DNA of 56,897 nucleotides, counting the filler, from Circinaria calcarea (lineage: Eukaryota): NCBI GenBank assembly GCA_051942165.1. It is 3 parts of 3 records of this genome, joined end to end, with 100 filler letters (N's around TTAATTAATTAA, not from the genome) between each part and the next. Parts side by side here need not be neighbours in the genome. Positions count along the whole stretch, not along the records: positions 1 to 19,004 come from JAVECS010000220.1; 2 more parts are not named here. One strand, given 5' to 3'. A program made the translations under genes and the position numbers. Shown here piece after piece: positions 1,282-29,000 of the stretch. How positions within the stretch are numbered: position 1 is the stretch's first letter; the number at the start of each line of letters is the position of its first letter. The notes below the pieces were generated by a model, which ran no database searches, had not been told where the DNA came from, and saw nothing but the letters and a program-made list of their open reading frames with translations.

Positions 1282-1662
1282 GGTGCTCAACTTCAGTGTC
1301 GGTATAAAGTCGAGGGTTTGGGCGAACCGACAAGTGTCACTTTATAAAATTTCCATTGGTAGGGTTAGCGATGTCGCGGCTCAGCGGCTAGAAAGTGCGG
1401 ACGATTCTCTTATCGATAAGTGAATTTCTCGCTTATGGTACCGGGCCTATCAGATTTGGCGAGGTAATATACGGCTTTGAACCCTCTAGCCTAGCAAAAG
1501 AAATTGGGGAGCGCATTGTACACCTTAGGTATCTTCATTCTACCTCATGAGCAGCAGCATTTAATTCTCCAGCTTTCCTTACTACTGTTGTTATTTCCTG
1601 TTCTCGCCCTGGTCTTTGGGCACTTGAAAAGCATTTTTCGAATCCACTCCTTAACTACCAAA

Positions 1663-3487
1663 ATGGCTAGTAATAATGGCATACCCATAGACGAGCCACA
1701 CAAGACCTTTTCGACAATCCTGGTTCTCGATTTCGGTAGTCAATACTCACATTTAATCTGCAGACGTCTCCGGGACCTCAATATCTTCAGTGTCATGCTG
1801 GCGTGCACAGCTAAGCTTTCTGAACTTGATTGGACTCCTGTAGGCGTTATTCTTTCCGGGGGACCCTACTCGGTTTACGAAGACGGGGCGCCGCACGTAG
1901 AGGAAGATTTGTATAAGCTAGGCGTTCCAATTCTCGGCATTTGTAAGGATCCCGTTTGAACGCTTGGTCAGCTACTTATGTTTGATGAATATTGATATGT
2001 TTATGAAAAGGTTACGGCCTTCAAGAAATAGCCTGGCGACACGGCCGAAATGTGCTTGCCGGTCAACATCGGGAGTATGGACATGCAAGATTGAGGATAC
2101 GGAGAAACGAAGGCAAGGCCCCTCATATTGACAAGCTTTTTGAGGGGCTTGGAGACGACCTTGAAGTTTGGATGAGGTATTTGAATCCTTTCTACGATCT
2201 TCCATATCGAGTCACGTATTTTCAACTAAAACAGGTTCTAGCCACGGTGACAAGCTTTCTCATCTACCCGCTTCCTTTACAGTGATCGCAGAGACCGATA
2301 ACTCGCCATTTGCTGCCATTGTCCACGAGGAAAAGCCTTATTATGGCATCCAATGGCATGCCGAAGTCACGCATTCAAACCTAGGATCCAAGCTCTTCGA
2401 AAACTTTGCCGTACGTATTTGTCACGCCCGCCAGGATTGGACAATGAGCGCGTTTGGCGACCAAGAAATCAACCGTATTCGTGCTCTTGTGGAGCCGAAA
2501 GGTCAAGTCATTGGTGCAGTCAGTGGGGGCGTCGATTCCACTGTCGCGGCCAAACTTATGCACTCTGCTATCGGCAGTCGTTTTCACGCCGTTCTAGTCA
2601 ACAACGGTCTCCTCCGCCTCAATGAAGCCGAAACGGTCCACGAGACTCTCACCGCCCATCTCGGTATTAATCTTACCGTAGTGGACGCCAGTAACCGCTT
2701 CCTCACAGATCTAAAGGGCGTCACGGATCCCGAGCAAAAGCGTAAAATCATAGGGAAGAACTTCATCGACGTCTTCCAAGAGACCGCAAAATCCATTGCT
2801 GCAGAAGCCGAAGGTTCTGAATCAGCCGGTCCTATAGAGTGGTTACTTCAAGGTACACTTTACCCCGACGTCATCGAAAGTATCTCCTTCCGAGGGCCGA
2901 GTGCCACAATAAAGACTCACCATAACGTGGGTGGTCTCCCTGCGGCCATGCATCTCAAGCTCATCGAGCCTCTCCGTGAGCTATTTAAAGACGAAGTGCG
3001 CGTACTCGGAGAGCAACTTGGGATCCCGTCCGACCTTGTCTGGCGGCATCCTTTTCCCGGTCCCGGTCTCGCAATACGGATCCTCGGCGAAGTCACACCC
3101 TCGCAACTTGCTATCGTCCGTCAAGCAGACCACATCTTTATCGACGAGATCCGGAAAGCAGGACTGTATCGGAAGATAAGTCAGGCATTCGCAGCCCTAT
3201 TACCTCTTAAAGCCGTAGGGGTGATGGGAGACAAGAGGGTGCATGATCAGATAATTGCATTAAGGGCGGTGGAGACGACGGATTTTATGACAGCGACCTC
3301 GTGTGATCTGGGTCAGGAGTTCAGGCAAAGGGTGAGCACGAGGATCGTAAATGAGGTGGAGGGGGTTTGCAGGGTGTTTGAAGATAGTAAGTCTCCTTTG
3401 GATGGATGAATGTGAGTAGTTCGGATGAATAGGCTGACCTAGTGAATAGTTACGAGTAAACCTCCCGGCACGATTGAACTAGAGTGA
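1663..3487 (+). CDS. GUA1: GMP synthase (glutamine-hydrolysing); 4 exons
   Basis: Motifs [25 protein letters not shown] (catalytic Cys split by intron ~1943-2010), [34 protein letters not shown]. Last exon after intron ~3388-3449 reads [15 protein letters not shown]. Confidence 0.97.
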
Positions 3488-4416
3488 GAGACTTGTCCCT
3501 GAAGATATCGATGTGTAACCTTGCTCGTTTTGCATACACTCGGCGTTCTTGAGGCGATTCGGAAAACGATCGGTTTCCCACAGGCACGCAGAAGACACTA
3601 GACCATAGATTATAGAGATACCCATGACCTTTGCGCAGTAACTTGATGCATTTGTCCAATGGCTCAGCTAAGCTCCGTCATATCACCACTATCGCATGTT
3701 TGATGTGCCAGGTTATGCTATGCTCTATCTACCAGTCACTTTGTTAGGATACATGGACTCAATCTAAGTACCCTGAAAAGCCCCTTCCGCGAGATCTTTC
3801 CGTCCGGATGTCCCCCTTGATAGAAGTCTATTAAAGTCATGGACCGCTCATCACCTCTCCTCTAACTCCCTTTATCAGCACTCAGTGGCCCTCCCCTGAC
3901 CCAAGTGCTGAAGTTGAGCATGGGGTAAGTGGCCCTGGACTTGTCGGTATAGTTCAACCAGTTTTTTTTGAGGAGATCGAAAAATATGCATGAACAGGAA
4001 CTCCGTATGCAATATGTACCTCGCATTGGATTGTTAAGTAGAAAAACCGACCAGTGTTGGGGGAGGGAAAGCCACACCGATTGCAACAGTACTCGAACCT
4101 TAACGGGCCGAGATATGCATCAGAAGGAGCACTGCGTAGGATTTCTGTGTGGGATTGGAAATATGGCGTTCGGGAGCCTTGCTTTTACCCTCGTTTCAGG
4201 GCATTGGTGCATGCTATCAACATGAAAGGCTCCGGATCTCTTGATCCATTCTCATCTAGAGCAGCGTCCAGACCGCTACTTCGTTCTGTCAGCCCCGTCT
4301 GGATTCTTCGAATGCTGGGTAGTCTAGAGACATGTTCTTTAAATCTGTATATCACGTTCCTAGGATCAGCATGACTTCTTGTGTATTTTATACAACGCGG
4401 GCGACTAACAAATCAG

Positions 4417-6318
4417 TTACCAAGCGCCCTCAGAATGTGGATTCCATATTGGAGCTGTTGTTGCATATGGGAGCTGTTGTTGCATACATAGCCTTTGGCA
4501 CATGTCATCTCCCAAACTACTCCAGCCTTTCTCATACGCCAAGTCTATGGCAGATTTAGCACCAGGTATCCGTATATCGGTCACGCTCACGCTTGCGCCC
4601 TGGTTAACGAGAAACCGGCTAAGTTCCTCGTTACCGCTTTCAATGGCGGCATGGAGTGGAGTTGGTGCCGTTGACATGTCGTAAGGTATTACTGGATTGA
4701 CTTCGGCACTCAAGTCCACCAAGCACTCCACAGTAGAGAGGTGTCCTCCTCTCGCCGCAACCCCAAGAATAGTTTGACCGCAGACATCTCGATTATTAAT
4801 GTCAGCTCCCGCTTCAATAAGCGCTCGGCAAGCGTCTGCCCTGCCATTGCCAGCAGCTAAAAAGAGAGCTGTGCGAGAATAACAGTCACGGATATCGATG
4901 GCGGTCCCCGCTTGGATTCCCGCTTGGATGCAACGATTCAACTCACTGAGTAAGCCCCGCTTTGCGGCAATATGTAAGGCACGCTGGTCGATAATGTCTG
5001 ATGCAAGCAGGTCGTTGTTAGGATTTGAGAAGACTGCAGCAACAACATCTGAGTTCGGATGGAGGGCGGCGCGCTGGACAGGCGGTAAGGCTAAATTCGG
5101 TGGTACGCCACCCAGCCCATGCCTTCCCTCCCATAATATGCCAAGGGTGCGAGAGACCTCGTCGGACGTCTCCACTAGCGACTGCGCTAGCATATGACCA
5201 GGGCTTTGATGGAACATTGCCACAGTAGCGAGAAGATGCTGTGCCTCGAATCTTTGGTTACTTTTTTGGAAGAAAACGGCCATTTTCAGCAGAGCCTGTC
5301 GCTTGCGACCGTCACCACATAATTGAGGGTGCCTCACCCAAGCGCAAAGGAGTCGTAGATATATAGACTGGGCGTAAGTCTGTGCTCTCGAGTCGGCGTG
5401 GACACCTAATTCCACTATGTAGATAAACAAGTGGTGCAGGTCTTCTTTGACCTGAGTGCAGAAGTGGAATAACTCGCTATATGGATGCTGGTTGGTATAG
5501 CCATGGGTTTGAGATGAATCGAGTTGTGCTATGTAGATGTCCAGGATGACCACCAGTTGGTTGAATTGATCTTGTCTAGCAAGTCATAAGTATAGCGGGA
5601 GTATATCATATATACGTCTTACTTGTCTCCAGCCTTCTTCTCAAGCTCCTTATCAGATAATTCCCAGATTTCGTGTATACTTTCATATTGTACCGGCCCT
5701 CTTGGGTGTATTGCCGGGTCGAGACCCTGGCTGACTGTTGGCAATGCTGGGGCAATCGATGCGATGGTTGACACTGGTGCTGGATGCCGCGCATGGTGTT
5801 GGCGACTGTGGTCTCCGGCAGCACTGACACTGCTGTTCGTCGACTGCACGGCAGGGTCATTGTTCTTGATGTAGTTCGGACTGCAGCTCTTCCCATGTTT
5901 AATACAGTAATCGCATTGCTGACGGATCCCCTCCCAGTCTCTGTCTTCGGGCTCGCACTGTGTTGAGCATCACATCAGAGCTCGGTCGAAATGCGGGGCG
6001 CGGCCAATCCTAGTCCCGCTCGCGGCCACCTACCTTGATCTTCTTTTCTCGGCAAGCACTGCACTTAGTCATGGATCGCGTCTTTTTCCTCAATGCATTC
6101 TCTCCATTGTTGTTCATGTCAACCTCGTCGTCCATATCAACCTTCCAACGAGCAGTCATAAAGCTCAGAGCGGAAGGAATGAGCTGGGACAGAGTATTTA
6201 TGTTAGCATCACTCTTCGATTCTCTGCGAGGTGTGCCATCACCGCCTCGAAAGGGCTTAACTATGCGAAGAACACGGACACTCGCCTTGTGAGCGAGGTA
6301 TGCCTCGAGTGCGTCCAT
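4417..6318 (-). CDS. Zn(II)2Cys6 binuclear-cluster protein fused to C-terminal ankyrin repeats (~590 aa; start codon uncertain)
   Basis: Splicing intron 6033-5958 gives CSACREKKIK|CEPEDRDWEGIRQQCDYCIKHGKSC (CX2CX6CX13CX2CX6C). Intron 5622-5576 joins in frame to ORF 4417-5553, which has ANK repeats (ALHIAAKRG, TALFLAAGNG, TILGVAARGGH, TPLHAAIESGN). Confidence 0.85.
4445..4486. repeat. 19-bp tandem duplication inside the 3' end of the Zn-cluster-ANK gene
   Basis: catattggagctgttgttg (4445-4463), catatgggagctgttgttg (4464-4482), then cata. Confidence 0.85.
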
Positions 6319-6871
6319 TAGAGGATTATGTGCACTGCCCACCTCATTACTCAATCCACTACTCTACGTGACTCGGTAGATTCATTCAATACGCTCGACA
6401 AGGAAGCCATTCAATATTCTTGACATGGAAGCCATTGAAGTATATCAATATGTTCGGAGCTCGAGAATCCGATGATTTCTAAGTTGAAATGTTTCGAACT
6501 TCACCTTCGCATCTTTCCGCTGAACTTCTCGCTTTCGCCTCCTATTTTCGGCTCGCATACATCCCTCTACCTTCGCTTCGCATCTCTACTGTTCTCGCTT
6601 CGCATAGAATGCTCTTACATGGTCAATGATTGGCTCCTTCCCTTGCTTCGCTTGTGTCGCTTTGGGCGATCCTCAATGTAAGGATAGCGCCGCTACAAAT
6701 CACTTGCTTCACCAAAGGCTTTACTGTTGTTTCGACCTTGTTGTGACACTCCCCATTATGTCTCTAATGGTCGCAGGCTTTATGGCGTATTACCTTGACG
6801 TTGCGTTTGCTATATATATTGCCTCCCACCCTGAATGAACTTCTGAGAACCTTGCTTGATTTCTTTGAAAA
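6319..6871. promoter_or_regulatory. Putative bidirectional promoter between the Zn-cluster-ANK gene and the NLR, with a TCGC/GCGA motif cluster
   Basis: Starts diverge ~550 bp apart; about ten TCGC tetramers in 6506-6660, including near-duplicated ttctcgctt(t)cgc at 6526 and 6592. Confidence 0.5.
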
Positions 6872-9800
6872 ATGGCAATCCACCTGGTCGAAATCTGTGA
6901 GAATGCTGAAGCTGCTGTTGAGTATGGTACCTGTTTTGCTACACTCTCAACTACTTATGTGATCGGTAGCATTGTTTACGTGCACGGTCTTGGCAGTCCC
7001 AATCACTGGGACTTGGAAAGATCTGCGCGGACAGCTGATTACGATGTTTGGGACTGCGGATTGTATAGCAGAGCAATATTAGACCAAAAGCCCAAAGCCC
7101 GCCGTTTCGTTTGGGGATACGCATCACAAAACACGCAATCATTCTCCGCAAATGCCTTCGAAGACGCTGCTGTGGATCTACTATCAGGGCTGGAGAAACT
7201 CGCTTCGAACGTGAGAACAGACCAATAAAGTGGTTCCGGTATGCAAGTGACTAAATAGCCCAAGGTCGCGCGACCGCTTGTACTCGTCGGCCATAGCTTT
7301 GGTGGGTTGATCCTAAAGAAGGTAAGAAAGCTCCTTTGCGGCTCTGATAATACTAAATGTCGAAAGGCCTTAGTGCTAGCAAGTTTACAAAGCAACTCAT
7401 CTTCAATCGCCCAACGAATTCTTGGAATTGTCTGACCACCCTAAATTGATGACTATAGCGCATCATTCTACTAACTCTTTGCGCAGATATTCCTTGGAAC
7501 TCCCCATGCTGGCCACGCAAAGGGTTGGTCCGATAAGGTTGGTAGTAAACTGCATCTGTGGCCAGATGGATATCCGTCAGAGTTCTTTCAGATATTTGCC
7601 GACATCTCGAACGCTTTTCAAGGGGTATCATCCCTATACAAAATCGTGTATCTCTGTCAACAAGATTGGCAAGACTGTGATGGGGCTATTGTACGTGTGA
7701 AACTGAATCCAGTTATGTTATAATCTCTTTCTTACAGCTTGACCAGCACCTCCACGATAACTGTCTCTGGTCAATCATTTCGCAAGAGTACAAGTTCCGG
7801 GCGAAGGAAAATCACTACGTTCTCCCAACGTCCTACGCCAAGTCCACGTTGAATGCCAGCGTGGAACACTTCATAGTACTTATTACCACAGGTAAGATAT
7901 GCCATTGGCCGTCCGGGTGATATCGGGATTCTAACTCTCAACGCAGCAGCGTTGAGAGAACAAGAAAATCCCAAGTTATGTCTTGAAAGGGAGCAGGCAT
8001 CTATGCAAGTGTATAGAAGTCTACGGGAGAATCAGACTTGCACCTGGCTCTTTGCGCGTACTGACTATCAAGTATGGCTTAGTGTAGGTGGTCCAGCTTG
8101 CTATTGGATTCATGGAGTGGTGGGAGCAGGGAAGTCCATACTCTGCTCGGCAATAGTTGAAGACCTCGAAAAACGTGAACGGCAGAGCAATAAGGTAGTC
8201 AGCTACTTTTACTGCGGAAAAGCCGGGGGACTAGACTGCACACTTGATTTCCTGAAAACTTTGGCCTATCAGCTCATTGAACACAAAACGCACACAATTC
8301 CTAATATCACCTTATCTTCAATTCTGGCCGAGATTGACACGAACGACCATCCAATCTCTAAGATAGCCTTCAAGTGCTATCTTAGGAAGGTTCTTATGGG
8401 CGCTGATATAGGGACCACATTTATACTCGTGGTGGACGGTTTGGACAACGAGGAATGGATTAAAGATATCCTTATTGGTGAAATCGTTCAGGCTAATGTT
8501 TGGAGGGCTAATCCACATCACATTAAATGTTGTGTCTCTAGCCGTTTCTCTTATAATACCGCTTTGCATCCCGACCAGGTCATTAAAATTAGTATGAGCA
8601 ACAACCCCGGTGTCCACAGCGATATATTCCATTTCGCTGCAAGGAAGCTTTCTGCTTTACCTCAAGCGTCTCTCGAGTCATGTTTATCTCCAAGTCATAT
8701 TGCTCAGCAGCTATGCGAGCGTGCCAATGGAGTGTTCCTGTGGCTAGCTTTGGTGATCGAGGACTTACAACGCGTGGACTCCTTTTCTGAAATACAGAAA
8801 ATAGTGGAACTACTACCCTCTACTGTTGAGGGTCTTTATGAAAGGGTTTTGGGTTCTTTGCCACCCGGGGATGCATTAACAGCGCAAAGGATCCTGTCGT
8901 GGGTTGCATCTGCATACCGACCGCTAAAAACATCGGAACTCATTGAAGCTTTATCGGCCGAAAACCAAGACTTTCTGGCAGTTGCACAAACTGTCCCAGT
9001 CGCAAAGAAGCCTTTACCAGCCGACTTCGGGAATGAGGTTCTTCGTGTATGTGGTTTACTTATCTGTATTACACCAGAAGGAACCCTTCAGTTTAGGCAC
9101 CACAGTATTCGAAGCTACCTCCTGAATGTCAATGGGCTGAACACGTTAAAAGGACGCACGTATGAGCCGCATGTTCTACTTGCGAGAACGTGTCTCAGCT
9201 TGTTGAGCTCCAGAAATGAAGGCAATTCATTCTTACTCAATTCACATTCTCGCCAACTCTCGGGTGACGAACACACTTCAACTTTGGTCGATTATGCAGC
9301 CACCTACTGGTCGGTCCATTTCCGTCTGGCAGAACCTCATACACAATCTCTCAATGGTATGCTACAGCGCTTCCTTGAAGTCGCCCTAAGACGCGGTTGC
9401 GAGAAGCTTCTATTGCCTCGAACACAGCTATCCATCAGGATCAGGCAGAACGTTTTGCGTTACTGCGCTTACTTTGGTTTCAAGTCTCTTGTCCAGATGT
9501 ACCTTGAGATGGGTGTCGATCCTAATTGCAAGGCTTGTGATTATTGTGAGACGCCGTTACACCTAGCAGTGGCCCGCGGTCATCCGGAAACGGTGGCTCT
9601 ACTACTTGATAAAGGAGCTTCTGTCTATTCACGAACATATTTTGGTGGGGAAACGTCTCTCCATTATGCATGTGCTCGCGGACGTTCTGGGATAGTTAGA
9701 CTGCTGTTGGAGCAAGGCGCCGACGTTAATGCGCTTACTTACAAAATCGGCAAAACACCACTGCATATTGCCACTGCTCATGGTCATCTTGAGATCATGA

Positions 9801-10603
9801 AGTTATTGATTACACATAACGCAGACATGAATGCGGTAATCAAAACAACGAACGAGACACCCTTGCATCTAGCCGCAGCCAATGGTCAACTGCAAGCAGT
9901 GATATACTTGCTTGACGGTCGCAATGCTTCTTTAACAGAGATGGAGCTCTATACTTCTATCGTGCAGCAGCCATATTATCGATCGTGGTCAGAGAGTTTG
10001 CTTATGGATCTCGGTATAAATGGACGTTTTGTCTGGGAAGCGGAAGCAAGGCTTTCCGCGGAGGAAGATATTAAAAACCTAATGACATGGTCAAGGCGAT
10101 ACGCTGACATCAATATGTGTACCTATGATGGTCAGACAGCACTCCACCACGCGGCAATGAACGGGCATGAAGCGGTTGTACGAATTCTGCTGCAAAGCGG
10201 AGCGGATCTGAACACAGAAAGGGATAGCCAGTTCACCGCACTCCAAGTGGCCGCAGAACATGGACATTTAGAAGTAGTAAAGTTACTTTTACGGAGCGGC
10301 GTTAATATCGATGCGGGAACCAAGAGTTGGGGATTATTACTCGAGCGAGTGGCAGATAATGGACATCAATCAATCGCAGACCTACTCATGTGGCAAGCTT
10401 TCAGCTCAGAAATTGTGGGTGCGGCTTCCAAGTGGCAAATACTCCGTCTTGCAACGAAGAGCGAACAGAATGTGGTCCAGAATGCACTACACAGGCAGCG
10501 CAGAGTGGGTCAAAAAGGAAACGATTCAATCAAGAAGCGGACATCAGACTTACGTGACAAAAGGATTGCTTCAGAACTTCCCCTGCGTTGTCGTACTAGT
10601 TGA
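6872..10603 (+). CDS. Fungal NLR-like STAND protein: SesB-like alpha/beta-hydrolase + NACHT + ankyrin repeats (~1140 aa, 7 exons)
   Basis: Introns 6922-6969, 7211-7258, 7322-7366, 7430-7486, 7691-7737 and 7892-7946 all keep frame. They yield VDIVYVHGL, RPLVLVGHSFGGLILKK|AL and IFLGTPH (SesB/DUF676-type hydrolase). NACHT motifs: WIHGVVGAGKS (Walker A), ILVVDGLD (Walker B), ANGVFLW, RPLKTSEL. ANK repeats: TPLHLAVARGH, TSLHYACARG, TPLHIATAHGH, TPLHLAAANG, TALHHAAMNGH, TALQVAAEHGH. Confidence 0.92.
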
Positions 10604-10650
10604 TTTTACTTTGCTCTGTTTCCCAGCGTAGGTTATGCTGATATAGAAGT

Positions 10651-10758
10651 TGTGTCGGAGTTTTCTCATAGCTAATATAGTTACTCTGTTTCGGGGCTTT
10701 CTCATAACTAAGATTGTTACTTTGTTTCGGGGCTTTCTCATAGCTAATATTATTACTC
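10651..10758. repeat. Minisatellite: 3 x 36-bp tandem repeat just downstream of the NLR stop
   Basis: tgtgtcggagttttctcatagctaatatagttactc / tgtttcggggctttctcataactaagattgttactt / tgtttcggggctttctcatagctaatattattactc. Confidence 0.9.
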
Positions 10759-11298
10759 TAAATATCGTTCTCGATTGTCACGGGAGTGCATGCATCATGA
10801 AAAATAATGATAGAATTGCTTGATTCTATTGCCCGAAGGCAGGTTTTAAGGCCCAGAGGCCTTGGTTAGCTAGCTAACCCGCTCCTTCCTTTCCCCTAAT
10901 ATCAATTAATGTGCAATAAGCCGCATATAATAAGATTTCCCCAATGTATCGCCTCCTATAGGTCCTAGATAAGCGTGCGGAGGTAGCCTATAGCGAAGCG
11001 AGCAGACAGTGGCAGGAAGTTGGGTATCATTGAGAAACCAACTTCCGAATAAGCGGAAAAGATGGTGTTTGAATGGGGCAGGAGAGTCATGGAGAGCCGG
11101 TTCGCATTCGACCATGATCGTACATTATGCGGGATTAGTCGAACCACTGGAGGAAAGTATATGCCGATTAGAACGTCGTTCTTCTATGGAGCTTTGTGCA
11201 CTCGTCAAACACACTTGGAATTCTGCCCCATAAACCACTCATTCAACTCTTTCCAGGAAACCCCTCAGATCCTTCTTGCTTACCCCTATCACCCCGTT

Positions 11299-11823
11299 AT
11301 GGCTCCAATTCAAACCAGATCTCACGCGATAACCTTCTCAACTCCAATTCCCACAGCAGCGCCGCCGGCGCCTTCTCAGCCAGGTGTTCAACCTGGATGG
11401 GGCCCAGCCGCCATCAGCGGCCTCGTCTTCGGCCTTGTCATGCTCTTTATCGGCGTGGCCACGCTCTACCAAGGAAGTCAGCATGCACGCCGCAGGCAAG
11501 GAGGTAAGCTCTGCCTTCCAGAGCGGAGTGCAGCTATAATAATGGTACTAGCAGATGACGAGGTGGGCTCTGAACACTACGTTGAGGAGCATGTCCCAAC
11601 AAGCGCCGGTTTGCAGGGCGAATGGGGGACGGCTGAGATCGAGCTACAGCAGTGCCTATGCCAGGAGCGAGAGGTGGCAGTGGAAGGCGATCGGCTTCAT
11701 ACTGAAGGAGAGACGGGTTGTGGCTTTGTACCGAAGGGGTTGGTGGGAACGAGGACAGACACCGATGAAACGTTGACCATGCCCGAGGATGAGGGAGTCG
11801 AGAGAAAAGCGACGAGGATGTAA
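11299..11823 (+). CDS. Small single-pass membrane protein of unknown function
   Basis: MAPIQTR..., P/T-rich N-terminus, hydrophobic WGPAAISGLVFGLVMLFIGVATLY followed by basic RRR, probable in-frame intron 11504-11554, acidic tail. Confidence 0.6.
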   Translation: MAPIQTRSHAITFSTPIPTAAPPAPSQPGVQPGWGPAAISGLVFGLVMLFIGVATLYQGSQHARRRQGGKLCLPERSAAIIMVLADDEVGSEHYVEEHVPTSAGLQGEWGTAEIELQQCLCQEREVAVEGDRLHTEGETGCGFVPKGLVGTRTDTDETLTMPEDEGVERKATRM

Positions 11824-12019
11824 GGCGGTTTACCGGCTGCGGAGCAGAAAGGAGCCATAGTGGAATTGCTCACAGAAGCGACTGGTTCTGCTTGTGGATA
11901 TAATGATTGAATGATTGAAGACTAGCATGATCTAACCAAAATTGATGATGATAATTTTGCTTGTGCGGTTCTGACAAGCAGTGGTTTTGACTTGAACGGT
12001 AGATTCTTAATCGGTCCCT

Positions 12020-12800
12020 AGTTTTTTTCCTTCCTGTATACTCGTCGCTTCTTCGTCCTCCACTACTTCCCGGACAGAACGGTCAATCTCCAGCTCTTCG
12101 TAATACTGAGGTTTTCCATCTCGATCTTAGTTTTCGTATGATCCCAATCTCTATTCCTATCCCTTTTCCTATCGATATTCATATGTCGTTTTCCATTCCC
12201 TAATCCCATTCATTTTCTACACGTCCTCTGCCCCTTGTTCCATCCTTATCTCGATATCGTTCTCGCTGTCTATTCCTCTCTCCACTATGATACAATCTCA
12301 CCTTGAGCTGGGCTTTATCTTAATTCCTTGCTTCATTAACTCCCCCAAAAGCATATCCTCCACGCTCGACGAGTGTGGCTCGGCCTCATAAGTCACCTAG
12401 ATGGCTTAATGGCTTATCTTTCTGTCATGGCGATTTTCAACCAAATTGCATTTGATCCTCGAGGTAGACTTGTTGTGTCGACTAGTGTTTAGGGTGCGAA
12501 GGTGTATGCTCGCAAACTCCAGCGGGAAATTACAATTGCTTTCTGAGCCGTCACCCTGATGCTTTGAAAAGCTATACCTGTGGCCTCGACTTCTGGGCGG
12601 CTTCTTTTCTCTTTTTCACGGCGCGTGCTTAGGCTTTGGCTTCCCGCTCGCATTTCATACTGTAGTCGCTTGTGACTTCCATATTCCTGTAGCTTGCGCC
12701 TCGGCTTTGCGGTTCTCTAACCTCGGCGGGATCAATGGCGAGTGCGAGAGCGAGGCGAGCGGGATCGACTTCTCTGTGGCTGAGGGTGTTAGAATAGAGC
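12020..12800 (-). pseudogene. Decayed coding relic with R/D/E-rich low-complexity segments
   Basis: Minus-strand fragments such as SGERNRQRERYRDKDGTRGRGR, DRKRDRNRDWDH and LENRKAEAQ are broken by stops and frameshifts; no ORF of 60 aa or more survives. Confidence 0.3.
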
Positions 12801-12968
12801 ACTTCCTCCCCCAGAGTTCGGCTTTAGCTATTATCCTCAGAACAGTAATTCTGAATGACGTAAATTATACGCAGTGAATTACTTCTAAATTGATTCCGCT
12901 CAGGTCAAAACAATCCAATTACTATTTGCAATCGCCTAGGGACTTGGAACAGCCAGCCAACCGAGGCA

Positions 12969-13970
12969 TCAAATTTTACTGCGCAAAAGCAACGATGCGG
13001 TCCCAAGTTGGGCATCCCTGTTAGGGGCAGTGGGGCCCGGAGCTTCAATGACATGCCAAAGATCCCCAAACTGCCAGAAATTCTGAATAGCTGCCCAATA
13101 TCGCACCTCGTCCTCGAGGATCAGAGCGCAATGCGGACTGGAGTGGAACATAACGCCATCCGCCCGATAGCCTTGAGTTCGAGCGGCTTTCAAATGCGAC
13201 TGGACATCCTGCCACTCAACCATTTGATCACCAGCTGAGTATAAATAGAGTCTTGCCGCATGTGTTCCAAAGACGGCGCTGTCGTTCAACTGGGCACGCA
13301 TTTCTCTTACAGAGTTCATGACACCGAAGTGCTGCAAACCGGTGATAGCTGCAATGGTTGGATAGAGCGCAAGCCTTCCGATAGACTGGGCAGGTTGACA
13401 GCGAGGAAGCGACAATACAGCGGCATTGTATGCTTTTTGGAATGTGGCATCTCCAGGGCAGCAATCGAAGATGATGCCTCTAAGTGGTAGGGGCATGTGG
13501 TTTTCTCGCATGGAAAGGGCAAGCTGGATCCCCGTATTACATCCACCGTGCGAGAAGATGTGCAGAAGAACGCAGTCATCTGAACTGTCGTCAACGAAAT
13601 CCCTATCACCTAAGATTGTACAGATGGCATCTCGAGCAGGCGCCAGTCCTGCTCGGATTTGTCTGAAGGAATGAAAGGTAATGTCCAGTATTGTCGTCCG
13701 AATAAGGAGGATGCAAGCATTTGGGAAGAGCTGCTGATATTTGATGATGTATTTATCAATGCGTTTAGTTGTCGCGCCTCCCAACCAAGTGCAAAGAATA
13801 ACCAGAGAAGGAGGAGGTAGATTGTCTTTTTCTTTACTACCTAAGGCTTCGGCATCATCGACTTCAGGCTTGTGTAAGAAGATGTTCTGGCCCAAATCTT
13901 GAAAGTCAACCACAGTCCTCAGAGCAGGTTTGGGTGACATAGCTGTATCAGTTGGGTTTATTTGGGGCAT
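12969..13970 (-). CDS. DUF829/TMEM53-family (PaxU-like) alpha/beta-fold protein, intronless, ending in SKI
   Basis: Motifs LVILCTWLGGA..K.I.KY, LLHIFSHGG, IIFDCCPG, LYLYSAGDQMV.W.DV..H, F..SPHCAL. Confidence 0.85.
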   Translation of the reverse strand: MPQINPTDTAMSPKPALRTVVDFQDLGQNIFLHKPEVDDAEALGSKEKDNLPPPSLVILCTWLGGATTKRIDKYIIKYQQLFPNACILLIRTTILDITFHSFRQIRAGLAPARDAICTILGDRDFVDDSSDDCVLLHIFSHGGCNTGIQLALSMRENHMPLPLRGIIFDCCPGDATFQKAYNAAVLSLPRCQPAQSIGRLALYPTIAAITGLQHFGVMNSVREMRAQLNDSAVFGTHAARLYLYSAGDQMVEWQDVQSHLKAARTQGYRADGVMFHSSPHCALILEDEVRYWAAIQNFWQFGDLWHVIEAPGPTAPNRDAQLGTASLLLRSKI

Positions 13971-14182
13971 AGCACGTAGGACGGATTGTCTAATTACGGT
14001 GGAAGGAATAAATACTTAAATGCGCTGTATCTGAATGCTCGCAAACATTGCGCCAATCAAACTACTACGCATTCAATTGGATTATTCATATTAAGATGTG
14101 CAATTACTATTCGTGGTTGAGAAATATATTACTCGGCAATTTACTACAGCTCCACTAAGTTAGTGCCCGCTTTACCCCTGCA

Positions 14183-19171: not shown

Positions 19172-22100
19172 TCAGAATTTCGACACGGCGACCGCAATCG
19201 CTTGAGTCTCGTTATGGCTGATACTGACATCCACACTCTTGACTCCCACTTTCGAAGCAGCAGCCTTGGCGTCACCATGTAACTAAGAGTCTGTTAGCAC
19301 TTTGTACGATATTCACCTAACATCAAAGAGGCTTACAGTGACAACAGGTGCGCCATTCGAATCGTTCAGCACCTCAATCTCTTTCAATCCTGCTCCGGCT
19401 CCCTTTCCCTGAACACCTAAACTCTTAAAGACAGCCTCCTTTGCACTCCACCTCCCCGTAAAGCTAGCTTGCGGACTCGGCGCTTTGCGGCAATAATCTT
19501 GTTCTTTCTGTGTAAAGTTTCTCTGTACAAAAGTATCGTTCTCAATGTTGATAGCATCTATGCTCTCGACATCAACACCAACCTTTGAGTTTTCTGTTGC
19601 AGTGGCTTTGGCCAATGATTCAACAGTCTGCCTTGTCGACTCCGCCTCCTTGCTGGTTGGCTTCTTAGGGATGCTGGTGGGATACGTGAGCTCTGAAGAT
19701 TTCTTGTCCATAGTGACTCTAGCAGTAGGGTTGAGGAAGACTTGACTTTGTTGGGCGTCGGCGTAAGGCGAATGTGTTTTGGCTACGAAGAGTGTATTGG
19801 TGATGAGCCCATTGTGGAAATACCTGTATGCACGCTTTTGACGTGCTTGCACCTTGGTTCGGTAGGTCTGGTATCGAGACTGATCTAGAGTCGCAAAAAG
19901 GTACTTGGGATGGATCCCGATTGCCTGTGTGCCTTTTTGGCCGAAGCCAAACGATGTGACTGAGAATGCCTTGACACCATCTGTTTGGATGGATCGGCTA
20001 GGGTAGACAATGTAGTCGAATTTCTCCATCACCTTATCGACGTTATCTGCATTTCGATTTCCAGGCACCAAGCCAGTGTTCATGACTTGCAAGCACCCGT
20101 TGAACATCCATGCGCCCGCAGCACCTTTAGGATGACCTGTAAGATACTTTTGAAAGATTCCGAGAAGCGCATTACCCTTTTTCCGGCCAAGATGCTTCAT
20201 CTGTTGGTAGACAACATCAGATTCGTTCTTATCGTTTGCAACAGTTGACGTTCCGTGAAACGATGCAACGTCGAGGTCATCGATAGTGAGACCCCAGGTA
20301 GCGAGTGCACCTCGTAACGGTGCGATCCTCGAATCCTGCTTCCAGAAAGCATTGCCTAAACTATTCATGGCCTCTTTTTCTTGTCGGATAGCTTCTCTGC
20401 TGATATGGGCTGCCCGTTCCTGCATGTACTCGGATTCATCAAAGTCATTGCCCTGTGACTTCATGGCTGAAAGCTCATCTTGTAAGTACATCAGCTCAGA
20501 CTCTTGCCACTGTCTGATCTGCTTCTTCCTAAGGTCGAGTTGCCGTCTTCGGTAGCCAATGTCGAGAAGAGGGGAGGGGAATTTTGATGGGGCTTCCCGA
20601 GCTGTTGTTAGCACACCCTGTCCAGGTGCAGGTACCGAACGGCCGATCTTATCGGTAGCAGTAGCTGTGTAACCTAGGATACCATAGATCGGAACACCCA
20701 TATCTAAAGCGAGCTGAGCGCACATTATGACCTGTATACCGCAACCTTGTGATTCCATGAAACCATTTCGAGTTGTTGTGGTAGGCCGAGACATCTCTTT
20801 CGGCGTTCTTCCGTGAGCGATCTCGTCCTCTGCGTTACTTGTAGCTTTCATATTGGCAAATTCATACGAGCCTTCCTCTTGGAAGTCATCAAACCCACCA
20901 ACGAAGCATACTCTTGCCTTACCCTCCACTATGGTCTCACATCCGATGTCGATGGATTCAACGGCTGTGGCGCATGCTCCAACCGGTGTCTTGATGGGCC
21001 CAGTCGATGATAATAGCAACATGTTCACCCACGCGCTCATTGTATTAATAAACGACTCTTGAAGGATATCTTTTTGAAGTGGCTTGTCCAGGAAACGATC
21101 CTTATACATTCCCTTTAGTGCAGTGGTTCCTCCAATACCTGAGCCAATGCAATTACCAACTTCCGAAAGATGTACGTATTGGTAGAACTCGTAGGGATCG
21201 GTGATACCAGATGCCATCAAAGACTCAACGGTGCAAACGAGGACGAACAGGGTAACAGGATCAACCTGAGAAATAATATCCTCTGGGATTCCATATTTCT
21301 TGGCATCCCACCCAGTAGGGATCTGACCAGCAACGAGACGGTCGAATTTCAAAGCCTTGGGAATCAAGAGAGTTGCGCCCTTCTTTAGACGCACTGTGTA
21401 TTCTCCGGAATCAGGCACTTCAAATATCTCAACTTTATCTCCATGTTCTCGCTTGAACTCATCAGCAGTTTCTTTAGAAGCTTCGAATTGATCCAGATCT
21501 TCCTCAATCACCACTTCTTGCAACAGTTGCTTCTTGTTTGGATCATAGCCTCTGAAAAGTTCCGGTTCGATAAGTCGAATACCAGAATGCTCAAGTATAT
21601 ACTTTTCGTATTTTGCCTTGATGTCCTTGTCATCGACCGGGTCTCCAGTTTTGGCATCAACCCATCCGGAATATGATTTGCCCTTGAAAGGTCCATTGTG
21701 GTTCCTGATAAGGCCCATTATCCATGCCATTTCAACACACCCTTCAAGTGAAAACTGGCCATAGGCTTCCATCTCCCACCGAGTGCGTGAATTTCCCCAG
21801 GGGCCAACCTCGGCAAAGCCGGTGACAACAACCACCTTGTCAAGGTCGACCATACCCTTGAGCTTAGAATTCAGCGGCTCCACCTCCTTATCCCAGTCAG
21901 GTAGCTCTGGAAACTCGAACTTGATGTTTGCTCGAGGCTCAATTATAACTTTCTTGTACAGAACTTGGCTATCTTCCCCATTCACAATCTTGTTCTCGAT
22001 GGCGGTCTCCTTGGTGACTGCCTTTCTGACTTCACTAGATTCCATGATTTCTCTTCGTAGATCCGTCATAAGCTCCTTCAGGTTCGGAATGAACTGAAGT

Positions 22101-24888
22101 CCGCCATTCAGGTCGGCGAAAACAGGTTCAAGCTGGCATAGGTTGACGATGCTTGGAGCCATTAAGCCGAGTAAATTGAAGGCCATTTCCTGTTGTGAGA
22201 ATGTTCTAACACCATATCGTTCTACTCCCTCGGCCACGACGTTGTTACCACTCATGAGTCCAGTGCCTCGAGTCCAGCCAATGACAGCTCCACAAATGGT
22301 TAGGAAGTTACCCCAGCTCTCGGCGTGCCATCGATTGAAGAGAGTCTCCAGTGCCAGCTTCGATTCGGAATAAAGGCCGTCGTTGCCAAAGGTACCATGG
22401 TTAGGCGAAAGAGGTAGTATTACTTGAGCAGGCCGAGTCTCAAACCCTCTCTCGTGCTTTTGCGTCTTGACACATCCAAGCAGCCTCAGCAAGTTGGTTA
22501 GCATGATTCGATGAGCTAGTTCAGACTTGGAGTCTATGTTGTCAATCTCGCGACCATTTTCAGGGATAGCAGCGAAGGGGATAATGAAATCAAGATCCCA
22601 GCCAAGACCCTTCTTAGTGTCGAAGATGTAGTCGATCAGCGCCTCAACATCCTGTTTGCTGCCTTGATTGAAAGGTACAACCACAAGCTGAGAGCCGCTT
22701 GCTCCATATCGGGCGTACATAGATTGGTAGTACTCAGTTACCTCTCTCGAGAACCTACTTGTGGTGACAATCACTTTGGCCCCTCCGCTGATCAGGCCTT
22801 GCAAAACATCTGCCCCGATCGAGCCTGCACCAGCTCCAGTCATCAGTGCGTTTTTGCCTTGGAACGTAACCCCGTCCTTAGCAGCCTGTTCTAGACCCTC
22901 CAGATACAAACCAGTGAGTTTCTTGCTGTACTCCCAGCCGTACTCATCTTTCCTCTTGAGATGCAAGAAAGGTATCGTTTCAACCTTGCCTGGTTTCGTG
23001 TGTCCATTCATGTGCAATTTCGAGCCGTTTTTAAGACCCTTCTTGGCATGTCCGTTCATCGCCTTCCCATTCTCAACAGGCATGATTTGGCCTTCATTCA
23101 TGGCCAGTGATCGGATAACGTTCTCGTAGAGAGATTTGATCTGTAGCTGTGAAGACTTCGACAGCTTGTGCTGTTGTTTGATGAGCTTGTAGATCCGGCT
23201 CAGATCGTTTTGCACTTTGGTACGGTTTCCATATTCCGATATCTTTCCACCGTCTGCCATTTCTCGCACATAGTGCTCAAGTTTCCTAGCACTTGCCCGC
23301 GGGACTTCAGCATACTCGAGGTTGCCTCGAACGTCAACTGTCGTTTGTGGACCGGTCGGTATTGCAACGTCCTTGAACACAGGAGCCTGACCGATTACAT
23401 CCTTACAATTGGCAATCAACATCTCTCCAAGTTGTTTGGCTAGTTGATACGTCTCTCCTCGCTCTGTAGGGCAGTTATCAATGTGATATTGCATAAAATC
23501 GAGAAGGGTCGGATTTGATCGATTCATGATGCGTATGCATCGACTGACGATCTCTCGATCTACTGCCGTCAATCGACCAAATATGATGTCGTAGTACATT
23601 GAAAGAGCATCCTGGCGTGCCCAGTTCCAGGAAGAATCATAGACACGAGCCTTGAGTTGACTGAACGCCGGTTCAATGCCATTGGCATAGAATTCCCCAT
23701 GTTCGGTGTTCCATAGGTCAAGCTGTGCTTGCAATACCTTCTGGGAATCTTGTGAACCTACAAAGGCCTTGTCGCCAGCACGGAGGTCCATCTTCAAGTA
23801 CCGTGCGAAAAGTTCTAATTGCTGCTTGAAAAGAGCTCGTTGATCCTTGGTGAGTGCGTCAATGGCAGCAGGATCCATCATCATGCCGCCGCCAGAACTT
23901 CCGGTTTCTCCACCAGCAACCGGTGCTGCAAGACTGATGCCAGCGGTTGCTGCATACTTATTCGTAACATCGTCTAAGAATGCTTTGGCATCACTCTCTG
24001 ATGCCAAGCGAGCCGCTGGTTCCATAGTCAGAGCCAACAGTAACACCCCGTCTTGCCTTCCAGATGCTAGGCCCCAACGTGTTTCGAGGTATTTCCTCAC
24101 CGCAGTAATGTTAAACCCTCCGGGCATTTTCGAGGAGACTAATCTTGCTACGAGTGAGGAAGATTGCTTTCCGAGTTGTCCGTTAAAGGTTGCCTGCATT
24201 GAAGCACCCAGCTCATCCAATGGCGTATCTTCCGGCTTTTCTGGCGTAGAGCCGAATTCCTTACCAAGGTCACCGAGGATCTCATTTTGCAGGGTTGATT
24301 TGCCTAATGCGAGGGATACATCAGTTAGGATTCTCGTAAGAATCAAGTGTATCACTAACCTCCGACTAAATCCTTGATAGCTTTGCTAAGAGGAACTTCT
24401 GCAAGCGGCTTCTTCAGCTTCTGTGCAATCAACGCTCGAACGATATCTACCGCTGCTACAGGGGCGTCAGCTACGGCCGCCGCCGGCCCTGCACTTGGTG
24501 AACTTGGTGCCGCGGCCACTGGAACAGCGTTTTGGGTGGATTGAGAAGGAGTAGGTACAGGGGCGCTGCTGCTGCTATTAGCAAGAGGAGTAGCCTCCTC
24601 TTCGACGGGGTCAACGTCGTAGTAAATTTCCTTTCCATCTTTGCTATAACACAAGATTTGTCGTTGCACCGAGAGTGCAGCATCATATGCTTCGTATTTG
24701 GATGCCAGGGTTCGCTTGGCCATGCCCCCCAGCGTATCTGCAGGACCAATCTCGACTATGCGTTCGGTGTTCCTCTCGGCCAGGATGACATCTTGGGTCT
24801 CTATCCATCGTACCGGAGATGCGAATTGGTATGCCAGTAGTTCCACCAGCAGGGTATGTGCCAGTTCCTGCTCCGCTTCGGGACGCAT
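19172..24888 (-). CDS. FAS2: Fungal type I fatty acid synthase alpha subunit (ACP, KR, KS, PPT); 3 exons
   Basis: Starts [46 protein letters not shown] spans intron 24359-24304. [21 protein letters not shown] and [17 protein letters not shown]...WSAKEAVFK. Last exon after intron 19336-19283 ends [21 protein letters not shown]. Confidence 0.98.
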
Positions 24889-26054
24889 CTTGAGAGCGCT
24901 GTGGTGTCCAAAGACCGACGGGAAGAATACTTCTCGAATTCACCAGAGGCTCAGAATGTGCTCAGATTCTCATTGCACCATTCGAGGCTGGCAGCAGTGG
25001 GCTCTGTCAGAGGATTACTACAATGTTTGAAGTGACGTTGAGGGCCGGGTGTAGAGTTTGAAGCTGACTGAACGGGGGGGGAGCTGCTGCAGAAAGGTAT
25101 GGATGGTCCTGTTCAGGCGTATTCAATCCAGCTGGTTGGAGGAACAGTGATCGGGATGCTACAAACAGCCAGAGAGGTGCTGTTATCAGTCCTCTCGGAG
25201 GTGGTTCTTAAAGATTCCGAGCATTTGTTGGGATCTTCAGCATTGGCCCTTCCAAATCCCCGACCCTCCACAAAAGCGAAGCTCAACCCAAAAGTTTCGC
25301 TCGTTGATGAGCTAGAGCCCAAAGCGGTAAGGCGCGGTGGTTTTCCCCAGATTTTCAATCCCAGCGCGCGTTTCGTAGGGCGTCAATTGGCGCCGATTGG
25401 GGTGAGGGTCGGGAATTGTTGGAGAGCGGCGGAGTCGGAGTCGTTGATGGTGGCGGTGTCTTTTCCAACACAGTGGCCTCTGTGGGGAAAACCAATACAA
25501 ACCATCGACTAGAATAGATCCAACATTCCTTCCTGTCTTATGTATTGAAGTGAAAAACAGAAGGACATGACCACTTCTCTGCTCCCCAAGACTTTCCTGT
25601 TCCTGTTCCTGAACACCTGCACAATGACGGACTCTCGGGATTAAAAAAAGTTTAGCGTCCTTTGAGCTCTCAACGTTCTTAGCTGTCGCTGCTATTACTC
25701 GGAGAAAAAGTTGAAATCTTCGAGTCTTGATAAGTAAGCCTCTGCAACTCAAGCTGTACATTCTTTCTTCGACCCACGCCTCCAATTGCTCCACCTACGG
25801 AGTTTCTTCCCTCCCTGTCACCTGCCGAGTCATGCTGAGCTCGTCCATCGGCCCCAGATAACGCATCTCACTCAATTGCAGCTCCGGTAGGAATCAAGCT
25901 GTGAGACCGTCCCTTCCCTCAACTTCCTCCACCTGTGCGGATCACCGTAGGGCCAATGTTCAAAGCTGTTTTAAGTGGCAGATTCCTCTAACACGTTTAT
26001 CATACAGGACGCCGAGCTATGTCACGCTCGCATCTCCAGGTACAAAACCTCAAC

Positions 26055-29000
26055 ATGCACGGCGCTAATGGCACTGGCCCCCAAACAGGCGTTTCAACGC
26101 CCCGTTCATCCTCTTCGCTCCGACCCCTCGTCCTCGCACACGGCTCTCTCGAGCATTCTCTCTTGATACCGACGACCTTGCATTTTCACGCCTCACAACT
26201 CAAAGATCGATTTACCGCATCCCTACCTACTCCGACAGATGAGCTCGCACAGGATGATGAGCCATCATCAATCCCAGAGCTCGTGGCACGGTATCTGGGC
26301 TTTGTGGCCCATGAGGTGGATAACGGCGAAGATGACCTCCAAGGGTCTTCCGAAGAAGTGCTCAAACTCGTACTAAACGAGTTTGAGCGAGCTTTCTTAC
26401 ACGGGAACGATGTTCATGCTTTGGCCGCCTCGCTGCCTGGTATCGAACGGAAGAAGTTGGCTGTCGTGCAGTCATACTATGCTGCCCGAGCTTCTGCCTC
26501 TCGACCTATCCGGCCCCATCAATCCGCGCTCTTCCGAGCAGCTGGTGATGATGAAGCGCTGGTCTATACTGTTTTTGGTGGGCAGGGCAATATCGAGGAG
26601 TACTTCGACGAGCTACGTGGAGTTTACACCACCTACCCTTCGTTTGTCGAAACTCTTTTGACGAAATCTGCCGAGCTTTTCCAGCATCTTGCGAGAGATC
26701 CGCGAGCAGAAAAAATGTATCCGAAAGGACTCGATATCATGCGGTGGCTACACAACAGGGACACTCAGCCTGACACAGACTACCTCGTTTCTGCTCCAGT
26801 CAGCCTACCGCTTATTGGACTAGTCCAACTTGCTCACTACACAGTGACCTGCAAGTGCCTGGGAGTTGCTCCTGGAGACGTCAGAGAACGATTGAGTGGT
26901 ACCACCGGTCATTCGCAGGGAATCGTGACTGCTGCAGCCATCGCTGCGGCAGATACATGGGAATCATTCGATAAGCTGGCAAGAGACGCACTGACGATGC
27001 TGTTCTGGATCGGAGCGCGGAGTCAGCAGGCTTACCCGAGAACATCGTTAGCACCATCAATCCTGCAAGACTCCGTTGAACACGGGGAGGGTACGCCCAC
27101 CCCCATGTTATCCATCCGTGATCTGTCGCAAAAGGCCATACAAGAGCACATCGATACCACAAATCACCACCTCCCGGAAGATCGCCACATCGCCATTTCT
27201 CTGATAAATAGTGCTCGGAACTTCGTGGTCACCGGCCCCCCAATTTCTCTATATGGTCTTAATCTCCGCCTACGGAAGGTGAAAGCGCCAACAGGGTTGG
27301 ATCAGACTCGAATTCCGTTTACCGAGCGTAAGATCCGCTTTGTTAACCGATTCTTACCCATCACTGCCCCTTTCCACAGTCCATACCTTATCGAGGCGTT
27401 CAAACACATCCAGGAAGACCTTAAGGATGTGAAGATACCTAGCAAGCGCCTTGGCATTCCAGTATACGATACCAATACAGGAAAAGACTTACGGGACGAA
27501 GGTAGTCAAGATATTGTACCAGCCCTAGTACGCATGATCACGCAAGACCCAGTCAACTGGGAGAAAGCGACTCTGTTCCCCGGTGCTACGCACATCATCG
27601 ATTTTGGTCCTGGCGGCATCTCCGGCCTTGGCGTCCTCACCCATCGCAACAAAGATGGTACTGGCGTTCGGGTGATTCTTGCGGGGGCAATGGACGGTAC
27701 CAACACAGAGATTGGCTACAAGCCTGAACTCTTTGACCGTGACGAGGAGCACGCGGTCAAGTATGCGGTCGATTGGGTCAAGGAGCATGGGCCAAAACTA
27801 ATCAAAACATCTGTCGGCCAGACGTTCGTAGATACAAAGATGAGCCGGCTTCTCGGAGTACCGCCCATCATGGTCGCTGGTATGACACCATGTACGGTGC
27901 CTTGGGATTTTGTTGCAGCAACCATGAACGCTGGATATCACATTGAACTTGCCGGAGGAGGATACTACAATGCTAAGACAATGACCGAAGCTTTGAACAA
28001 GATCGAAAAAGCGACTCCAGCCGGTCGTGGAATCACAGTTAACCTTATCTACGTCAACCCTCGAGCGATGCAGTGGCAAATACCACTAATTGCCCAGCTG
28101 CGATCAGAAGGCGTGCCAATCGAGGGTCTCACCATTGGAGCAGGTGTCCCATCAATTGAGGTGGCCAATGAATATATCGAAACATTGGGCATCAAGCACA
28201 TAGCATTCAAGCCTGGTTCGATGGAAGCCATTCAACAGGTGATCAACATTGCGAAAGCCAACCCAAGCTTTCCGGTTATACTTCAGTGGACAGGCGGTCG
28301 TGGGGGGGGCCATCATTCTTTTGAAGACTTCCATCAACCCATCCTTCAGATGTACGGTAGAATTCGAAGATGCGCTAACATTGTTCTCGTCGCCGGTAGC
28401 GGTTTTGGTGGTTCCCAAGACACTTACCCCTATTTAACTGGAACTTGGTCAGCAAAGTTCGGATACCCACCTATGCCCTTCGACGGATGTCTCTTTGGCA
28501 GTCGGATGATGACTGCTAAAGAGGCGAAGACTTCTACAAACGCAAAGAAGGCTATTGCGGCGGCTGAAGGTGTTGACGACAGTCAATGGGAAAAGACCTA
28601 CAAGGGCCCAGCGGGTGGCGTAATCACTGTCCGCTCGGAAATGGGAGAGCCGATCCACAAGCTGGCTACTCGAGGTGTCTTATTCTGGGCAGAAATGGAT
28701 CAGAAAATATTCAGTCTCGACAAGGCCAAGCGTGTACCAGAATTGAAGAAACAGCGAGATTATATCATCAAGAAATTGAACGATGATTTTCAAAAGGTCT
28801 GGTTCGGTCGTACTGCTGCGGGCGAGGTTGTTGACCTTGAGGATATGACTTATGCAGAAGTTGTTCGCCGCATGGTTGATCTAATGTATGTCAAACATGA
28901 GTCACGATGGATTGATCCGTCACTCGAACGCCTTACTGGGGACTTCATACGCCGTGTTGAAGAACGATTCACCCAGTCCTCTGGCAAGCCCTCATTACTA

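Follow-up and report, generated by a model that had tools for sequence, protein, structure and literature searches.

The genome of Circinaria calcarea, a lichen-forming Lecanoromycete represented by a metagenome-assembled genome (GCA_051942165.1), contains a divergent gene pair whose linkage is conserved at a second locus. The stretch analysed here comprises 56,897 nucleotides, filler included, joined from three parts of three records (hereafter the window). In it, a NOD-like receptor (NLR) gene encoding lipase-like, NACHT and ankyrin (ANK) parts lies head to head with a gene encoding a zinc-cluster/ankyrin protein (hereafter the partner), and 553 bp separate the two start codons (Table 1). 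The same pair, again head to head, is present on the metagenome contig L001 at about 35% protein identity and between different flanking genes, and chance adjacency is unlikely. The two genes probably work together. Our preferred explanation, which is held tentatively but seems quite possible, is that lichen-forming ascomycetes have here a conserved unit of two divergently transcribed genes, in which the ANK domain of the NLR would contact a partner acting as a guardee or as a nuclear adaptor.

Conservation of the gene pair at a second locus

Metagenome contigs were scanned with an alignment of the partner family. Nine loci were recovered, and only L001 and L002, which carry the same sequence, match the part of the partner outside its ANK repeats. 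L001 (13.1 kb) is the sole locus beyond the window with enough flanking sequence for adjacency to be tested. It encodes a partner orthologue on its plus strand, which matches the window protein over residues 94-557 (34% identity, E 4e-66). Approximately 1 kb upstream, on the opposite strand, lies an NLR gene; its large exon and the window NLR align collinearly over 864 amino acids with 36% identity (E 2e-172). This second NLR shares a 50-residue insert in the ankyrin domain, and its upstream exons encode a hydrolase-like domain with the motif GHSFGD (Abhydrolase_6, 25.3 bits against a cutoff of 26.3). The preliminary description of the window had raised the possibility that orthologues of the two genes would prove unlinked in other genomes; at L001, the only other locus examined, both lie head to head, with a spacer of around 1 kb.

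The gene structures agree as well. In both loci the first exon of the partner gene ends six residues after the second cysteine of the zinc-cluster motif and the next exon opens with the third, and in both the first intron of the NLR gene falls just before an xVxVHGL strand. Among 339 stored proteins, the best non-self match of the L001 NLR is the window NLR (519 bits), and the best matches of the L001 partner are the window partner and its two closest relatives. The flanks, on the other hand, differ. Nine open reading frames (ORFs) flanking the pair in the window (BCCIP, two for GMP synthase, DUF829 and five others) have no credible counterpart in L001, the best match having an E value of 0.043 over 22 amino acids. 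A sulfate permease gene adjoins the L001 NLR, in the place taken in the window by an unknown ORF and the DUF829 gene, and GMP synthase is absent from the 1.5 kb beyond the partner stop codon in L001. At about 35% protein identity, and with other neighbours on both sides, the two genes have kept their adjacency, orientation and intron positions, so the linkage is conserved.

Linkage need not mean shared function. The two genes could have stayed or moved together through chance, through slow decay of micro-synteny, or through co-transfer on a mobile element; we judge linkage of this kind, without shared function, unlikely. The pair has been seen in two genomes only, no further co-located pair occurs among the family rows compared, and NLRs with co-transferred neighbours are described, in the accessible part of the literature, in Starships of lichen fungi, all of which would suit such an explanation. 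It fits poorly with the retention of the pair, its orientation and its introns at this level of divergence between two sets of unrelated flanking genes. Under free shuffling, two given genes would be adjacent with a probability of about two divided by the gene number, which we estimate at ~1e-4. Neither terminal inverted repeats nor long direct repeats were found around the pair (scan of ~3400-13000), nor any recombinase-type domain among the 29 large window ORFs scanned.

Distribution of the two families

A version of the chance explanation in which the NLR is an orphan was considered and rejected. The best non-self matches to the NLR were at first only 24-27% identical, whereas an exhaustive search gave relatives at 32-70%. 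The orphan reading was a search artefact, because word-indexed searches scored only the 8000 candidates sharing most words with the query; for ankyrin-rich queries these are swamped by ankyrin proteins, and every true NLR relative was missed. When the NOD part (window 7877-9529) was used by itself as the query of an exhaustive HMMER search, 72 proteins were returned at E <= 1e-30. Among them are a 427-amino-acid fragment (70% identity), a graded set at 35-39% and full-length proteins of ~1140 amino acids at 32%, with Lepraria neglecta (OEA41_008373) and L. finkii (ABVK25_006861) among the named sources.

For the partner, word-indexed search gave orthologues at 63, 63, 46, 44 and 39% identity, and the partner alignment had no match when run against contigs of prokaryote genomes and of viruses. 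Overall, identities to the window NLR run through 69, 44, 40-41 and 32-38%, and those to the window partner through 62-65, 45-48, 41 and 35-38%. Named members of both families have so far come only from Lecanoromycetes (Xylographa, Trapelia, Lepraria and Circinaria), one of them being the partner gene MMC30_002633 of Trapelia coarctata, and on this evidence both families exist across the class with similarly graded identity.

Gene models

The coordinates and head-to-head layout given in the preliminary description are borne out by the gene models (Table 1). The splice sites of the partner gene, as read directly in the DNA, give the database protein P0001 exactly. A 63-nt exon is probably absent from P0091, the database model of the NLR, since the candidate exon has AG/GT borders and an open frame, and since residues are present at the P0091 gap in all six other full-length relatives in the alignment. 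With this exon included, the residues that link the nucleophile elbow to the FLGTPH motif of the NLR are regained. Directly 3' of the NLR stop codon lies a 36-bp unit in three tandem copies (10651-10759, 84% matches).

Table 1. Coordinates of the divergent gene pair, its domains and spacer, and other genes of the window.
Feature	Position	Strand	Details
Partner gene	4417..6318	minus	ATG 6318; stop 4419-4417; 592 aa; database protein P0001
Partner gene exons	6318-6034, 5957-5623, 5575-4420	minus	introns of 76 and 47 nt
Six-cysteine Gal4-like motif of partner	5883..6063	minus	residues 86-120; split by 76-nt intron 6033-5958
Helical region and ANK of partner	4471..5575	minus	helical ~205-400, ANK ~401-575; conserved across 19 relatives
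Shared spacer	6319..6871	.	25-bp tandem repeat 6383-6436 (2.2 copies); CGG-N11-CCG palindrome 6455-6471
NLR gene	6872..10603	plus	ATG 6872; stop 10601-10603; 1120 aa; matches database protein P0091
NLR annotated exons (approximate)	6872-6921, 6970-7213, 7268-7321, 7487-7690, 7738-7890, 7946-10600	plus
Probable NLR exon absent from P0091 model	7367-7429	plus	63 nt (21 aa); AG/GT borders, open frame
Alpha/beta-hydrolase-like (SesB-like/lipase-like) domain of NLR	6872..7890	plus	residues ~1-235; GHSFGG, Ser108
NACHT-type NTPase core of NLR	8033..8545	plus	residues 265-435; Walker A G-x2-G-x-GKS (K298), Walker B D399
C-terminal ANK domain of NLR	9443..10420	plus	residues ~731-1060; conserved 50-residue non-ANK insert ~906-955
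BCCIP/BCP1	318-902	minus
GMP synthase	1495-3409	plus
DUF829 gene	12969-14015	minus
FAS2 / FAS1 divergent pair	19313-24939 / 25992-32441	minus / plus
Kinase, RabGAP, P450, CDC20, prenyltransferase alpha subunit, RPS6			elsewhere in window

The NLR protein

The NLR had been described as tripartite, with SesB, NACHT and ANK parts. Two of the three are well supported in Pfam: the NTPase matches NPHP3_N, a NACHT-type model, at 85.3 bits (cutoff 24.8), and the ANK repeats reach 173 bits over six matched stretches. The PF05729 NACHT model itself scores 17.2 bits (cutoff 26.7), and a winged helix of the GPI-inositol-deacylase type (GPIID_WHD) scores 26.9 bits against a cutoff of 27. The Walker A residues G292, G295, G297 and K298 and the Walker B residue D399 are invariant in 24 aligned relatives, and the NTPase switch is apparently intact.

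The SesB part is sub-threshold. The N-terminus contains the nucleophile-elbow motif GHSFGG, and its Abhydrolase_6 match of 21.0 bits falls below the cutoff of 26.3. The label 'SesB-like' is nonetheless plausible, because weak matches to Abhydrolase_6, DUF676 and PGAP1 recur in relatives, such as DUF676 in the L001 NLR (16.2 bits, cutoff 20.3) and PGAP1 in the relative P0158 (18.2 bits, cutoff 24.3). The elbow serine, S108 in the window, is kept in 4/8 aligned relatives (alignment A5) and is replaced by glycine in three and by asparagine in one. As it is replaced in half of these relatives, catalysis by the lipase-like domain cannot, on this alignment, be the sole or universal output of the NLR family, and some members may use the domain non-catalytically.

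When the window and L001 are compared, the ANK domain is the best conserved part of the NLR, with 41-51% identity as against 30-32% in the NOD and helical parts, and no internal DNA repeats were found within it. Both features argue for a conserved ligand, which they fit better than hypervariable recognition of non-self. Internal repeat conservation is linked to hypervariability in fungal NLRs, and the window NLR is without it. These observations bear on whether the pair could be an allorecognition locus of the het/vic kind, polymorphic as in Bcvic1/Bcvic2 or plp-1/sec-9, in which the partner would be the polymorphic guardee. The NLR does have the architecture of Bcvic1 (serine esterase-NACHT-ANK) and an adjacent partner gene, as such a locus would. 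However, in Bcvic1 it is the ANK region that varies, with 38.7% identity between alleles compared with 98.7% in the N-terminal region, according to the accessible part of the source (bioRxiv 10.1101/2022.04.03.486892), while here the ANK domain is best conserved across genomes. Taken with the absence of internal repeat conservation, this makes a het/vic locus very improbable.

The partner protein

Six cysteines of the partner, at residues 86, 89, 96, 110, 113 and 120, are arranged as C-X2-C-X6-C-X13-C-X2-C-X6-C, and the 76-nt intron falls between the second and the third. The consensus spacing of Zn(II)2Cys6 proteins is C-X2-C-X6-C-X5-12-C-X2-C-X6-8-C, so the 13-residue loop is one residue beyond the range. 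All six cysteines are invariant in P0001 and in the orthologues from Trapelia (P0006) and Xylographa parallela (P0301), and they are kept in all four orthologues with an N-terminus at hand, including that of L001 (C-X2-C-X6-C-X11-C-X2-C-X6-C). The loop between the two cysteine halves therefore has 13 residues in the window, Trapelia and Xylographa proteins and 11 in L001. A profile of the motif, compared with all PDB sequences, gave five matches, none of them significant, to Gal4 (four entries) and Cep3 (one), all of them Zn2Cys6 proteins with the six cysteines aligned.

The likeness to Gal4-type transcription factors extends to the two C-x2-C-x6-C halves and to the basic R/K pattern of the first half, which aligns to that of Gal4. 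The partner differs in its inter-half loop, which is of six residues in Gal4, and in having an ankyrin C-terminus and no Fungal_trans domain. We read the motif as genuine but divergent Gal4-type, with an enlarged central loop and a putative role in DNA binding. The Xylographa pallens protein P0004, as annotated, is without the zinc-cluster N-terminus that is present in X. parallela; its upstream exons were probably missed in annotation.

Further along the protein, an Ank_2 match of 75.6 bits supports the ANK repeats reported in the preliminary description. The AlphaFold model has a mean predicted local distance difference test (pLDDT) score of 64 and reaches confident values only over residues 189-575, which are modelled as a solenoid of helices and ankyrin repeats and where block means are mostly 65-93 with a dip to 50-56 around residues 331-370. 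Searches with Foldseek, of PDB sequences and of the ESM Atlas gave only generic ankyrin/DARPin matches. Pfam scans of the partner found no Fungal_trans (middle-homology) domain, no SNARE or syntaxin domain, and, even at E values up to 10, no NOD or P-loop domain.

The shared spacer

Fungal Zn2Cys6 regulators often adjoin their target genes, which counts towards a simpler arrangement in which the zinc-cluster protein binds the spacer and controls both the NLR gene and itself, without any contact between the two proteins. Such a local regulator and target would suit the conserved head-to-head layout with its short spacer, the first half of the cluster (C-x2-C-R-x2-K-x-K-C), which aligns residue by residue to Gal4, and the one CGG-N11-CCG in the window spacer. 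That single palindrome is at about chance level, however, as ~1.4 CGG/CCG pairs would be expected in 553 bp by our estimate, and no inverted CGG-N11-CCG was found in the L001 spacer. A regulator of this kind would also be one with a sub-threshold zinc-cluster match and with ANK repeats instead of a Fungal_trans domain, and the conservation of the helical/ANK domain of the partner would be left unexplained. We find this alternative rather doubtful. Neither the palindrome nor the 25-bp tandem repeat of the window spacer is conserved in L001.

A proposed two-gene unit

In the two-gene unit that we prefer, both genes would be co-expressed from the short shared spacer and both proteins would act in one pathway. 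The NLR, with its lipase-like, NACHT and ankyrin parts, would serve as a STAND NTPase switch, and its conserved, non-hypervariable ANK domain would contact the helical/ankyrin domain of the partner. The partner would be a dedicated protein in which a long disordered linker joins a divergent zinc cluster of the Gal4 type to the conserved helical-plus-ankyrin domain. It could be a protein monitored by the NLR, that is, a guardee as in PLP-1/SEC-9 and Bcvic1/Bcvic2, or an adaptor that would take a signal to the nucleus via its zinc cluster.

In favour of this unit are the conservation of the pair in L001 between different flanks, the retained introns, the agreement of the best-match relations and the similar graded identity series of the two families. 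The shared confinement of named members to Lecanoromycetes so far, the well conserved ANK domain free of internal DNA repeats, and the replacement of the elbow serine in half of the aligned relatives point the same way. The precedent of Bcvic1/Bcvic2, in which an esterase-NACHT-ANK NLR lies beside a partner gene, also counts for it.

Several points weigh against it. Adjacency could be tested at a single locus beyond the window (n = 1), and a comparison of 26 partner-family with 51 NLR-family rows, which has low power, gave no further co-located pair; these rows came from looking up 19 clusters of the NLR family and 11 of the partner family, the latter drawn from a list in which the partner of L001 did not appear. 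The zinc cluster, described earlier as complete, has the cysteine pattern, split by an intron, but does not reach the Pfam threshold for Zn_clus (PF00172, cutoff 21), scoring 15.5 bits in P0001 (E 0.019), 16.3 in P0006 and 16.0 in P0301. The PDB matches of the motif profile are not significant, the best having an E value of 0.19. The argument from the best conserved ANK domain is soft, since ANK consensus residues inflate identity. BLASTP of P0001 against P0091 aligns ANK to ANK only (30%), with nothing else below an E value of 1. Finally, the window and L001 spacers share no k-mers of 8-11 nt beyond the range of 200 shuffles. The earlier idea of a co-regulated immune or non-self recognition module is partly supported, through the linkage of the pair at L001. 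Its functional side, with a transcriptional output or a guardee or decoy role for the partner, is an inference; no shared promoter motif was found and the zinc cluster is sub-threshold.

A more specific proposal is a dedicated module leading from the NLR to transcription, in which the activated NLR would engage the Gal4-like/ankyrin partner and gene expression would change instead of, or besides, lipase-mediated cell death. We regard this as improbable. In vertebrates, the NLRs CIITA and NLRC5 have a transcriptional output and work with the RFX complex, which includes the ankyrin-repeat subunit RFXANK. This is a functional analogy to the transcriptional proposal; no homology is claimed, and apart from NACHT and ANK the systems are unrelated. 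We know of no genomic pairing of CIITA or NLRC5 with RFX genes.

Comparison with known NLR systems

The closest known system is that of Bcvic1/Bcvic2 in Botrytis cinerea, with plp-1/sec-9 and vic2, in which an NLR of esterase/lipase-NACHT-ANK architecture adjoins a non-NLR partner gene, as it does here. As described in the accessible part of the source, the Bcvic1/Bcvic2 partner is a syntaxin/SNARE protein, and polymorphism is high at the locus, where the ANK region varies (bioRxiv 10.1101/2022.04.03.486892). In the plp-1/sec-9 and vic2 systems, too, an NLR-like protein is encoded next to a SNARE partner. The window pair departs from Bcvic1/Bcvic2 in its zinc-cluster/ankyrin partner, its head-to-head gene order and its conserved ANK domain.

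The preliminary description had likened the pair to NWD2/HET-S loci and to the sensor/helper NLR pairs of plants. In NWD2/HET-S loci, an NLR gene adjoins a gene to which it is functionally linked, and the two may be divergently transcribed, according to the accessible parts of the sources (PMC4344463; PMC3321046; PMC9815663). In NLRs of this type, however, the N-terminus bears a short amyloid motif, which recurs at the C-terminal end of the neighbouring gene product, whereas the window NLR has a hydrolase-like N-terminus of ~235 amino acids and the pair has no motif in common outside ANK; the analogy does not hold. The plant pairs, as far as the accessible text of the source goes, are likewise head to head with a short shared spacer (PMC12258605), but in them both members are NLRs, and the window partner has no NOD domain, so this analogy fails too. 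Head-to-head NLR-NLR pairs are rare in Sordariales, at 13/225 two-NLR clusters in the part of the same source that was accessible (PMC12258605).

No description of an NLR paired with a Zn2Cys6 gene was found by full-text search of the literature, in the parts accessible, and the supplementary neighbour tables of PMC9815663 might list such neighbours. An NLR with a linked partner gene is a known kind of system; a zinc-cluster/ankyrin protein as such a partner appears, on this search, to be new.

Surrounding genes

The region is gene-dense and mostly housekeeping. The BCP1-GUA1 pair noted earlier beside the NLR locus is confirmed as BCCIP/BCP1 and GMP synthase (Table 1). Between the NLR and the DUF829 gene lies an open frame of 256 amino acids (11053-11823, plus strand), with neither a Pfam match nor a counterpart in L001. 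The same window also contains the fatty acid synthase alpha and beta genes, FAS2 and FAS1, head to head and ~1 kb apart. As a textbook case of divergent genes with a joint function, they could serve well as a positive control for the head-to-head idea.

Significance

The function of most fungal NLRs is unknown, and the few that are understood (HET-S/NWD2, PLP-1/SEC-9 and Bcvic1/2) were solved via a linked partner gene. Should a wider survey fail to recover the pair, the window NLR would be one more with an incidental neighbour. If the transcriptional module proposed above were true, a transcription-factor output hard-wired to an NLR would be seen for the first time in a fungus. In lichen-forming fungi the genetics of recognition has hardly been explored, and such a module would be a candidate for the sensing of partners or intruders in the lichen symbiosis. 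A pair kept at ~35% identity, with a partner that resembles DNA-binding proteins, gives a concrete and testable way towards an NLR output beyond cell death.

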